Of a stretch of 40,222 nt of DNA, positions 24,001 to 27,000 are shown in pieces. The position numbers were made by a program. The stretch is from a virus. The stretch is taken from UHGV virus genome UHGV-0123874. One strand, given 5' to 3'. Numbering within the stretch: the first letter of the stretch is position 1; each line of letters starts with the position of its first letter.

Positions 24001-27000
24001 TCGTTTCTTCTCTGCTGCTTTTTCCGCTTTTTCGCGTTCTTTACTTCGTCGTTCGAGTGCTATCTTGGTTCCACACTCTGGAGAGCACCACCACTGATTG
24101 GCGAATGCAGGGTGAAACCATTCCCGACATTCATCGTTTTTACATCGTCTTCGCGCTGGTTTAGCCATCGTCTTCTTCCTCGTACATTGAGCTATTCGGA
24201 TCGCTCATCAGTTCTGCGCAGCAGTGCTCACACACGTGAACTTCCAGCACATGCAGCTTCTGACCACAGTTAGCGCACGTTAAAGCTCGCTCGACGCTTT
24301 CTTTCTGGTATTGAAGGGATTGGGATGGGCTAAGCATTAACAACCTCCATACAAACTTTCACGAATGCCGTTGCTACTTCTGCATTGATTGCGTTTCCAT
24401 ATCCAATAATTCGCTGATCTTGATTGCGCTTTGCCATTCGTCCCAGTGTGGACTTGCCTCGTCCCAAGCTTTTGGCAATGCCATTAACCATCGGGAATGA
24501 GCCGGGTCTAACTGGACGATATTTTTCATCTCTACAGTAAAGCCAGTCTGCATCTCTCCAGAAGCCGTTAACCGGTAATGGGTACATAGCTTCACCGTCC
24601 CGGGAAGTTTCAAGCAGATTCTTGGGGTTCCGCTCTTGTCTTTTCCGCTGTAGCAATGCGTTGAACCTGTTGCATCGTTCGCTAAAGGAGTTTGCCATCC
24701 CGCTAGTCTCACGCATCCAGATAGGTTCTGAATTCCCCTGCGCGTTTCTGGCTGAAAGTTGATATTTGTCGTTGGAGTAGGCCACCCAATACAATCGCTG
24801 CCTGATGTGCGGAGAACCGAAGCCCGCAGCGCAAATATCGGTACCTGCAGAGGTGTAGTTCGCACCTTCCAAGTCAGTTTGTACAAGGTCGAGCCAAGCG
24901 AGGCCGTCTGCGCTTGCAACCTGTTCGCCAATAACGATGCCAGGATTGCATTTTTCAATAAGCCAGAAGAATGCCGGCCATAAGTGCCGCTCGTCATCAA
25001 CCCCTTTTCCTTTGCCTGCCGAGCTGAAAGGTTGGCATGGGCAACTTCCTGTCCAGATACTCTTGTTGTCTGGCCATCCTGCTTTTCTAAGTGCATAGCT
25101 CCAAACTCCGATTCCTGCAAAAAAGTGGTGCTGGGTAAATCCTCGCAAATCACCTGGTGTGACATCTTCAATACTCCTTTCATCTACATAACCTGGGGCA
25201 ATTTCTCCAGCGTCAATTAAGTTACGCAGCCATTGCGCTGCATACGGATCTATTTCGTTGTAATACGCAGTCATCGTCATTTCCTCGCACGATGTCTTAG
25301 CCACCGGATATCCCACAGGTGAGCCGTGTAGTTGAAGGTTTTTACGTCAGATTCTTTTGGGATTGGCTTGCGTTTATTTCTGGAGCGTTTCGTTGGAAGG
25401 TATTTGCAGTTTTCGCAGGTGATGTCGGTGAAACTTCGTCGCTGTCGTCTCATTCGTACCTCCTGTCGGTAAATCTGACACCCTGACCAATAGCCCAGGC
25501 TGTTGTGTACTCGATCAGACTTGCCATACGCTTCACGCTCATCTGCGCGCTGCTTTCGCGAATGTTGACGTATTCGCCTTCAAGCCCGGGCAAAACATCA
25601 GCTTCCTGTTTTGTTGCCACTGCATGACCGCTGATCAACAAAACCTTCCATTGTTCCGGTTTTAACCATTTATCGCGCCACTGAACTTGCCTAGCGATAT
25701 CTGCGACCATCGCGTGAAATTTTGCGTTCTGGTCAAGATTGCGCTTGTAGTCAGTAATGCGGATGGTAACTGGCTTGTCTTTATCGAGTGGTGTTGCGAG
25801 GATGGCGTTGATTGCGGCTTGCTGTTGTTGCTTACTTCGGAGGAAGATTGTTTGCTTCATCGTTACTCCTTCACTTTGACTCCAGCAGCGCGGATGGCGC
25901 TCTGCACCTCGCTTACATACAGATATGGGGTTCGCCCACTATGCATGGTAAAGCTTTCAGGAAGCTCAATCTCGATAGCTGCTCGCGATGCCTGCCACGT
26001 TTGCCAGTGGCCTTGAACATCGTCCATCACGTATTGACCACCAATATCACCACTGCCAATTTCATGGTGATTTTCAGGGTAACGGATAAGGTCTGAAGAT
26101 TCGCCCCCACGTCGTAACCAACTCTCTTCAAACTGGCATCTGCTTTCGTCATCTTTCATAAGGCAGTCACATTCAATAAAAATCGGCTCTCCCCAAGGAG
26201 TAGAACCTCCGCTATCACACATTCCTGTGTTATTGCACTTTTGGCACTTGCTCACATTAACCTCCGATTAACTCACAAAACGCCACGCCACTTTTGCTAC
26301 GACAACAGGCATAACACCGATAATCACCCACAGAAAAATGCTACCTAAAAGCACACCAACCAGGTCTTTACCTTCGCCTACCAACCGGACAAAACTGCTG
26401 GCAACCACAATGAACGTCGCCACCATCCACATAGCACCGAGAATCCTCAATGCAGAAAAAATCAACTCAACCACGATTTACCCTCCCCCAAATAAAAAGG
26501 CCTGCGATTACCAGCAGGCCTGCTATCAGCTCAGTGATGTAGATGGTCATTTAATACTCCGTCACGTTTTCCTGTCGCCACGCCTCGTCATATTCAGATT
26601 TCGGCATATTGGCGATGTAGCTATATGGAGATCCTGATTCAAGTTGCAGGAACTGGTGCGATTGCTCGTCAAGGAACAACGGGACACCACCTTCCCAACC
26701 TTCGCCGTTACGTTGTTTTTCAAGCATTAAAACAGATGCCGGAGATGCCAGTAGCTGTTCGTCCTTCTCTGACATCTTTTCACCACTCTGAACTCTCTGT
26801 AACGCTCTCTCGCGAGCCTTGTTACGCCAGATGATGAAAAGGTTGTCTGTCAGGTCTGTTATCGCTCCAGAGCCCTTTACGTCCATTTTCCCGGTTGGTT
26901 TTTCTTCGCTGTCACCTTTTCGCGAGTGAGTAACGAGAATGACGTGGGAGTTTGTTTTGTTTTTGAAATCGCAAATCGAGTCAACAAACGCCTTCTGCCC

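Follow-up and report, generated by a model that had tools for sequence, protein, structure and literature searches.

A candidate methyltransferase subunit encoded in the +1 frame inside an orphan C5-cytosine methyltransferase gene of a lambdoid prophage

The virus genome UHGV-0123874, a stretch of 40,222 nucleotides referred to here as the window, carries on its minus strand a gene for the large polypeptide of a C5-cytosine DNA methyltransferase (alpha, 24330..25280; 316 amino acids [aa]) that matches the Pfam family PF00145. Nested within alpha, on the same strand and in the +1 frame, lies a long open reading frame (ORF), beta (24374..25165; 263 aa from a conserved ATG at 25165, with its stop codon at 24376..24374). 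The original prediction described both, as an orphan methyltransferase gene situated in the nin region and a 269-codon frame at 24374..25183 on the strand of the gene, and it left open whether the second was a coincidence of composition or a genuine overlapping gene. We confirm both features, place them on the minus strand (which had not been stated), and conclude from comparative sequence analysis that beta is almost certainly a genuine gene. Furthermore, we argue that beta is probably a subunit of the methyltransferase, which would make alpha and beta a two-polypeptide enzyme.

Results

Delimited mechanically, the alpha ORF runs on the minus strand from a GTG at 25316 to 24330 (328 codons, 987 nucleotides) and the beta ORF from 25183 to 24374 (269 codons), the latter beginning six codons before the ATG at 25165. 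The likely start of alpha is the ATG at 25280. This codon overlaps the stop of ninE as ATGA, and the start of ninF overlaps the alpha TAG at 24332..24330; alpha is therefore taken as 25280..24330. In a 99.6%-identical Escherichia coli prophage, the PGAP annotation uses the next ATG (25274), two codons later, and has nothing else annotated there. The +1 frame joins positions 2 and 3 of each alpha codon to position 1 of the codon that follows. It contains five stop codons within the first 130 nucleotides, with the GTG at 25316 as the point of reference, and then none over 810 nucleotides.

An uninterrupted frame of this length had been called improbable, and shuffling of the gene bears this out. 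In 20,000 shuffles that kept the alpha protein, carried out under two schemes, a +1 run of at least 269 codons arose at a frequency of 1.5e-4 when synonymous codons were permuted within alpha and of 1.3e-3 when codons were drawn from the usage of the window; the mean +1 run in the alpha shuffles was 107 codons. The next longest +1 run, in a comparison of 30 window genes, has 136 codons. The single-gene result is suggestive and, across a genome scan, would not be decisive. Were beta an untranslated by-product of the composition of alpha, it would have company in the window, where antisense ORFs of 295, 244, and 212 codons (13001..13888, 27766..28500, and 17553..18191, plus strand) lie inside minus-strand genes (13055..14308, 26551..28431, and 17511..18926, respectively). 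Against coincidence stand the low shuffle probabilities (1e-4 to 1e-3) and the persistence of the open frame in relatives that belong to phages of different host phyla.

Homologues were gathered from 80 IMG/VR loci and one Logan contig, with 100% to 51% amino acid identity to alpha; they form 32 clusters at 90% nucleotide identity, and the tests drew on 39 lineage representatives. In 80 of the 81 homologues, the +1 frame stays open over 258 to 335 codons, and in none of the homologues is the +2 frame open for more than 74 codons. Stop codons in the alternate frame of close homologues, which would have spoken against a gene, are thus absent from all but one sequence, L055 (IMG/VR 3300046515_000024), in which a single internal beta-frame stop falls at alpha codon 208 and which could be a defective copy or carry a sequencing error. 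Lineage-wise shuffles gave P≤0.001 in 31 of the 39 representatives that differ by >10%. The +1 translation matches 2784 database proteins, and among the products of diverged genes, identity to beta is 49 to 54%, compared with 53 to 57% for alpha. The earlier impression that the composition of beta resembles an off-frame translation does not survive this comparison, in which the nested product is as conserved as the main one.

We estimated selection in the two frames with an OLGenie-like count over 952 sequence pairs of 80 to 97% nucleotide identity, with bootstrapping over codons, and found a mosaic along the minus strand. Alpha codons 1 to 38 (25167..25280), where the +1 frame contains its five stops, are constrained in frame 0 only (beta-frame omega, 1.64; alpha-frame omega, 0.07), and the predicted local distance difference test score (pLDDT) of the alpha model is 81 to 91 there. 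Beta-frame omega falls to 0.52 in codons 41 to 75 (alpha, 0.04), and codons 76 to 165 (24786..25055) are constrained in both frames (beta, 0.36; alpha, 0.19). The pattern is inverted in codons 166 to 235 (24576..24785), with beta-frame omega at 0.17 (interval, 0.13 to 0.21), alpha-frame omega at 0.91 (0.75 to 1.13), and pLDDT of 25 to 39. Codons 236 to 300 (24381..24575) again show omega of 0.16 to 0.37 in both frames (beta, 0.16, and alpha, 0.19, in codons 236 to 265; beta, 0.37, and alpha, 0.33, in codons 266 to 300). Codons 303 to 316 (24333..24374), which lie at or past the beta stop and share only position 24374 with it, return to frame 0 only (beta, 1.33; alpha, 0.24) and encode the end of the C-terminal helix (pLDDT, 78 to 88). 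The +2 frame, included as a control, was not significantly constrained in any of the regions (point estimates, 0.60 to 7.9; every interval reaches or exceeds 1).

Main-frame synonymous change (dSN) settles the choice that the original prediction had left open, in favor of a genuine overlapping gene: it drops approximately 3- to 10-fold, from 0.56 to 0.87 outside the constrained overlap to 0.06 to 0.19 within it (for instance, 0.83 in codons 1 to 38 and 0.56 in codons 41 to 75, compared with 0.19 in codons 76 to 165). Beta-frame omega of 0.16 to 0.37 inside the overlap and of 1.3 to 1.6 directly outside it is likewise contrary to coincidence, as is the finding that beta is the sole constrained frame in codons 166 to 235. 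Codons 41 to 75 give coincidence some room, given that the +1 frame would be open there by chance in about 33 of the 39 lineages.

The position of the substitutions within codons tells the same story. Divergence at codon position 3 far exceeds that at positions 1 and 2 in alpha codons 1 to 75 and 281 to 316, and position 1 is about equal to position 3 in codons 76 to 165. In codons 166 to 235, position 1 diverges more (0.36 to 0.57) than position 3 (0.12 to 0.16), the pattern that marks a segment coding in the +1 frame; codons 236 to 265 are nearly invariant at the nucleotide level. Between the window and its closest relatives (L015 and L016), 20 to 21 of the 25 to 27 differences in codons 166 to 235 fall on alpha position 1, which is the wobble position of beta, so that they alter the alpha residue and are silent in beta. 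Coincidence is refuted by the openness of the frame in homologues, the selection analysis, and the differences among close relatives, and we leave it a vanishingly small chance.

Although neutral, the alpha frame is open across codons 166 to 235 in 39 of 39 lineages, where synonymous shuffles of beta predict 3.4 of 39. A segment that is neutral and still kept open means that alpha must be read through to its conserved C terminus. This segment of alpha is a neutral read-through linker, in which beta is the constrained frame.

The alpha protein passes the gathering threshold of PF00145 (52.9 bits; cutoff, 22; E, 5e-14) over residues 87 to 219 of the 328-aa ORF, or 75 to 213 of the 316-aa protein (approximately positions 64 to 201/207 of the 324 in the profile). 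Its score against TIGR00675 is 42.7, below the cutoff of 100.65. The claim that all core motifs are present holds for the catalytic ones: F54-A55-G56-x-G58 (motif I), P81-C82-Q83 (IV), E119-Q120-V121 (VI), and R160/R162 (VIII) are invariant in 67 homologues and align to M.HhaI with both phmmer and hhalign. The hhalign match covers M.HhaI residues 7 to 174 at 97% probability; part of the M.HhaI sequence used agrees with the phmmer alignment. The claim fails for target recognition, since alpha probably has no such part of its own. Between motifs VIII and X, where a single-chain enzyme would have its target recognition domain (TRD) and motif IX, profile matches to alpha end at residue ~213 to 219, and the AlphaFold2 (AF2) model is confident at residues 1 to 170 and 300 to 316 and has pLDDT of <40 at 173 to 295. 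Taken with omega of 0.91 over codons 166 to 235, this low confidence leaves alpha without an evident TRD; judging from the model, alpha probably has no structured or constrained recognition region. Consistent with this, Foldseek searches with the model retrieved HhaI, HaeIII, DNMT1, and DNMT2 over ~170 to 200 columns (~1e-7 for HhaI, HaeIII, and DNMT1), covering the catalytic domain only.

Two further features of alpha concern its ends. Invariant residues G295-N296-A297-I298 are followed by a confidently modeled helix (300 to 315), and in the profile searches this region did not align to any known enzyme. At the N terminus, residues 1 to 50 (25130..25280, minus strand) form a confidently modeled beta-alpha-beta unit with an invariant YYNEID ahead of motif I, and alpha lacks the motif II/III stretch, being ~40 residues shorter than HhaI from motif I to PCQ in the hhalign alignment. 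The model thus suggests a permuted motif order, II-III-I-IV, in the alpha family.

Beta has a succession of conserved blocks. The first three, LSARQAKE.GLLTSGTYG (or LSARQAKE.GL.TSGTYG), GSTLYKLTWK, and LRASV.RTS, overlap alpha motifs IV to VIII (codons 76 to 165). They are followed by GWPTP and then by a variable number of modules led by GWxTP, the site of insertions and deletions; in the window, the variable region opposite alpha codons 166 to 235 reads GWPTP / GWQTP, and beta peptides include STLYK and LAGWQTPLANDATGSTHCYSGK. In alignment A1 (columns ~145 to 430; beta residues ~135 to 200), whole modules are inserted, each beginning with GW(P/V/Q/N)TP and often continuing with TxRDWKD or AxD. 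The differences in module length appear as whole-codon gaps in the alpha-based codon alignment, with both frames open across them, and the window has two modules, among the shortest versions. Beta ends in RLT..GEM.TG....QLNPAHSRWLMGLP..WD. This block, also written RLT..GEM.TG....QL(N/D)PAHSRWLM.LP..WD, and the beta tail overlap GFWRDADW..CRD...P and GYGNAI (putative motif X) in alpha codons 236 to 300.

A block of ~260 nucleotides over the variable region (24560..24820, minus strand) is 95 to 100% identical at the nucleotide level to a locus of a P2-like phage (L081, 5001..5903), with flanks that are 50 to 75% identical; overall amino acid identity of that homologue to alpha is 70%. On sequence grounds, the block looks like a recombinationally exchanged specificity cassette. 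Movement of the variable part of beta as a cassette between diverged genes is what would be expected of a specificity module.

Beta has start signals of its own. A GGAG Shine-Dalgarno-like site (25174..25177, minus strand) lies 8 nucleotides upstream of the beta ATG (25165..25163), which is kept in 38 of 39 lineages, as GGAG is in 37 of 39. The ATG stems from a conserved Asp-Val of alpha (GAT GTN), and GGAG is kept by a bias in synonymous codon choice, with only AGG or CGG used for the alpha Arg and only AGY for its Ser. Gene callers predict the 263-aa product elsewhere too (P0121). The first ~45 beta residues are poorly conserved, and an internal TTG-ATG at beta residues 56 and 57 (24995..25000, minus strand), preceded by AAGGAAAAGGGG, opens the conserved core and is a possible second or true start. 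In phage N15, the beta frame is interrupted by a stop immediately before the corresponding Met, so that the beta of that phage must begin at this Met.

These signals bear on another way of reading the mosaic, in which ribosomes on alpha would shift into the +1 frame after motif VIII, and perhaps back again before motif X, to make one chain. The succession of constraint from frame 0 to +1 and back to frame 0 does fit the motif order I-VIII, TRD-IX, and X. Any such fusion would lack the N-terminal half of beta (LSARQAKE.GLLTSGTYG, GSTLYKLTWK, and LRASV.RTS), which is nevertheless constrained; beta has a conserved Shine-Dalgarno site and ATG; the closure of the beta frame just upstream of the core in N15 fits initiation there; and the alpha frame stays open through the linker. 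With its N-terminal half under constraint and its own start signals in place, we regard a double-frameshift single chain as very unlikely.

The nested design is widespread. Searched against 1.84 billion library proteins, a beta profile picked up 15,613 clusters at 50% identity, and beta proteins occur in the PHROGs families phrog_1008 and phrog_31772, both labeled "DNA methyltransferase." The alpha/+1-beta pair with the same beta motifs was found in Erwinia phage 59, Edwardsiella eiAU, Bordetella PHB09, Burkholderia E228, and Xanthomonas FoX4, and likewise in N15 (gene 58), Rhodobacter RcJoli, Erythrobacter R6L, cyanophage Cr-LKS3, Klebsiella KpV2811, and a Vequintavirus. The hosts include alpha-, beta-, and gammaproteobacteria and a cyanobacterium. 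In all distant phages inspected (11 of 11), beta sits only within alpha genes. Beta-like sequence was detected by tblastn in 243 phage records; among the 45 matches listed, nearly all lie under (cytosine) methyltransferase genes, the few exceptions being labeled "hypothetical protein" or otherwise.

Annotation of these loci is inconsistent. The coding sequence (CDS) recorded for Burkholderia E228 (L085, 1363..2580), Xanthomonas FoX4 (L086, 1484..2209), and cyanophage Cr-LKS3 (L091, 781..1518) is the beta frame, named "putative metabolic enzyme," "DNA methyltransferase," and "methyltransferase," respectively, and alpha is missing. The Erythrobacter R6L locus (L090, 888..1707) is fragmented into an antisense hypothetical ORF and a partial CDS, and most other records have alpha alone. 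In the literature searched, we found no description of the nested gene of this family, which does not exclude one elsewhere.

The genes around alpha (ninB, ninE, ninF, ninG, ninH, and a Ser/Thr phosphatase) place it in the nin region of a lambdoid prophage of the P22/Sf101 type, which, with the PF00145 match, upholds the first reading of the locus. No restriction endonuclease gene lies beside alpha, as had been noted; its neighbors are ninE and ninF both here and in E. coli K71-77, and homologues are surrounded by phage replication, nin, or other methyltransferase genes. With no adjacent cognate endonuclease, the gene does not belong to a type II restriction-modification system.

Elsewhere in the window, the Rz/Rz1 spanin genes (20582..21031 and 20635..20826, minus strand) form the second nested pair of this prophage, with Rz1 (lipobox LLGVSAC) in the +1 frame of Rz. 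ARAGORN found no tRNA gene in the window (1..40222). In E. coli K71-77 (L087, 6500..6655), genes for tRNA-Asn and tRNA-Thr lie between the antiterminator and holin genes, after a nin region otherwise nearly identical to that of the window; the two prophages thus differ downstream of Q.

Discussion

We propose that alpha and beta are the two chains of one enzyme. Alpha (frame 0, 316 aa) would supply the S-adenosylmethionine-binding, catalytic large domain, with motif I, PCQ, EQV, RxR, and the C-terminal GNAI helix, and its middle (residues ~170 to 235, longer in relatives) would be a read-through linker whose amino acid sequence is free of selection. Beta (up to 263 aa) would be translated separately, from the GGAG-preceded ATG at 25165, from the internal start near 24997, or from both. 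Its conserved N-terminal half would dock on alpha, and its GWxTP units, with the RLT..GEM.TG...QLNPAHSRWLMGLP..W block that follows them, may form the small domain for target recognition and an element like motif IX. The resulting heterodimer, an orphan enzyme made from the nin (delayed-early) operon, would methylate the DNA of phage and host alike. Association of the two chains, the placement of the TRD and motif IX in beta, the need for beta in activity, and a role in protection from restriction are the parts of this scheme that we infer; an anti-restriction role is plausible.

Several results weigh against beta as the specificity subunit. Pfam and NCBIfam contain nothing that matches beta; hhalign of the beta profile to M.HhaI gave a probability of 0.4%; and neither the beta profile nor the beta C terminus had a significant match among all PDB sequences. 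A chimera assembled by hand from alpha residues 1 to 168, the beta TRD/IX region, and the alpha C terminus scored 51.8 bits against PF00145, compared with 52.9 bits for alpha alone. AF2 modeling of beta by itself, from a 58-sequence alignment, gave a mean pLDDT of 47 and a predicted template modeling score of 0.32; so weak a model may reflect a chain that needs alpha in order to fold, although it is no proof of this. In addition, the predicted TRD of M.EcoHK31I, the closest architectural parallel (see below), was published in its alpha chain, whereas the variable constrained sequence here is in beta. By eye only, and with no profile support, the motif IX pattern R.L.P.E.ARLMGFP can be likened to QL(N/D)PAHSRWLMGLP..W of beta (and to LSARQAKE.GLLTSG as well).

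Beta could instead be a genuine gene with no part in methylation, such as a regulator, an anti-defense protein, or a DNA-binding protein, and alpha could work alone, perhaps with relaxed specificity. The lack of detectable similarity of beta to methyltransferase TRDs or motif IX would fit such a gene, as would the retention in alpha of all catalytic motifs and of a conserved C-terminal block. It would leave alpha without an evident domain for DNA recognition, residues 173 to 295 being modeled with low confidence and codons 166 to 235 being neutral, and it would have to account for the strict coinheritance of beta with alpha in the distant phages and for the precedent of M.EcoHK31I. We consider an unrelated function unlikely and favor a role for beta within the methyltransferase.

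Bacteria and phages have few long same-strand overlapping genes, and those are often contested; this one has very strong comparative support together with biochemical precedent. Across a very large phage family, nesting of this kind is the norm, and for the most part annotation omits it. The locus is also a natural example of a segment that is kept open and yet neutral, its function being carried by the other frame. Should beta be the specificity subunit, the thousands of genes now labeled "DNA cytosine methyltransferase" encode half an enzyme, some phage genomes list nothing but the other half under misleading names such as "putative metabolic enzyme," and attempts to define the methylated motif by expressing alpha alone would fail or mislead.

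More tentatively, and with somewhat more doubt than confidence, we extend the proposal to the whole phage orphan family (at least 15,000 clusters at 50% identity, including N15 gene 58 and the epsilon15 methylase). The family may be obligatorily dual coded, with specificity residing in a nested +1 subunit that bears a horizontally exchanged GWxTP cassette and with a neutral linker in the middle of the annotated protein. The arrangement could be what remains of a double frameshift, after which the docking region of beta was overprinted on motifs IV to VIII. If true, this would be among the longest, oldest, and most widespread same-strand overlapping pairs in prokaryotic viruses, and one largely missing or misframed in annotation.

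Compared with the classical enzymes M.HhaI, M.HaeIII, and Dcm (PF00145), the catalytic domain of alpha is homologous by sequence and predicted fold. It differs in that the alpha frame probably lacks a TRD and motif IX and that the YYNEID beta-alpha-beta unit precedes motif I in place of the II/III stretch. The lambdoid Rz/Rz1 pair shares the embedding of a gene in the +1 frame and the union of two products in one complex; its function is unrelated, and Rz1 has ~60 codons, compared with the ~260 codons of beta, which overlap catalytic motifs. M.AquI (CYCGRG) is a two-subunit C5-methyltransferase (Karreman and de Waard 1990, as cited in PMC3404938). Like the pair proposed here, it occurs naturally as two polypeptides, the smaller of which contains part of the variable region. 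The M.AquI small subunit contains motifs IX and X and is encoded downstream, whereas in the window alpha bears the putative motif X (GNAI) and encloses the whole of beta.

The nearest parallel is M.EcoHK31I of E. coli HK31, an enzyme reportedly described by Lee, Kam, and Shaw in 1995, and we liken the two by architecture, from its published description. Both have a beta gene nested on the same strand in another frame and an alpha chain with motifs I to VIII and X (the last putative here), of 309 aa there and 316 aa here. M.EcoHK31I is half of a restriction-modification pair, whereas the gene studied here is an orphan in a prophage nin operon, and its beta has 176 aa, compared with up to 263 aa here (~207 aa from the internal start). 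According to the published accounts (PMC2836561 and PMC3404938), the M.EcoHK31I beta (target, YGGCCR) lies wholly inside alpha in a different reading frame, neither chain is dispensable, and the N terminus of beta mediates their association. The first 42 residues of that beta are dispensable and internal Met codons initiate its translation (PMC2836561), a parallel to the internal start at the conserved core of beta in the window.

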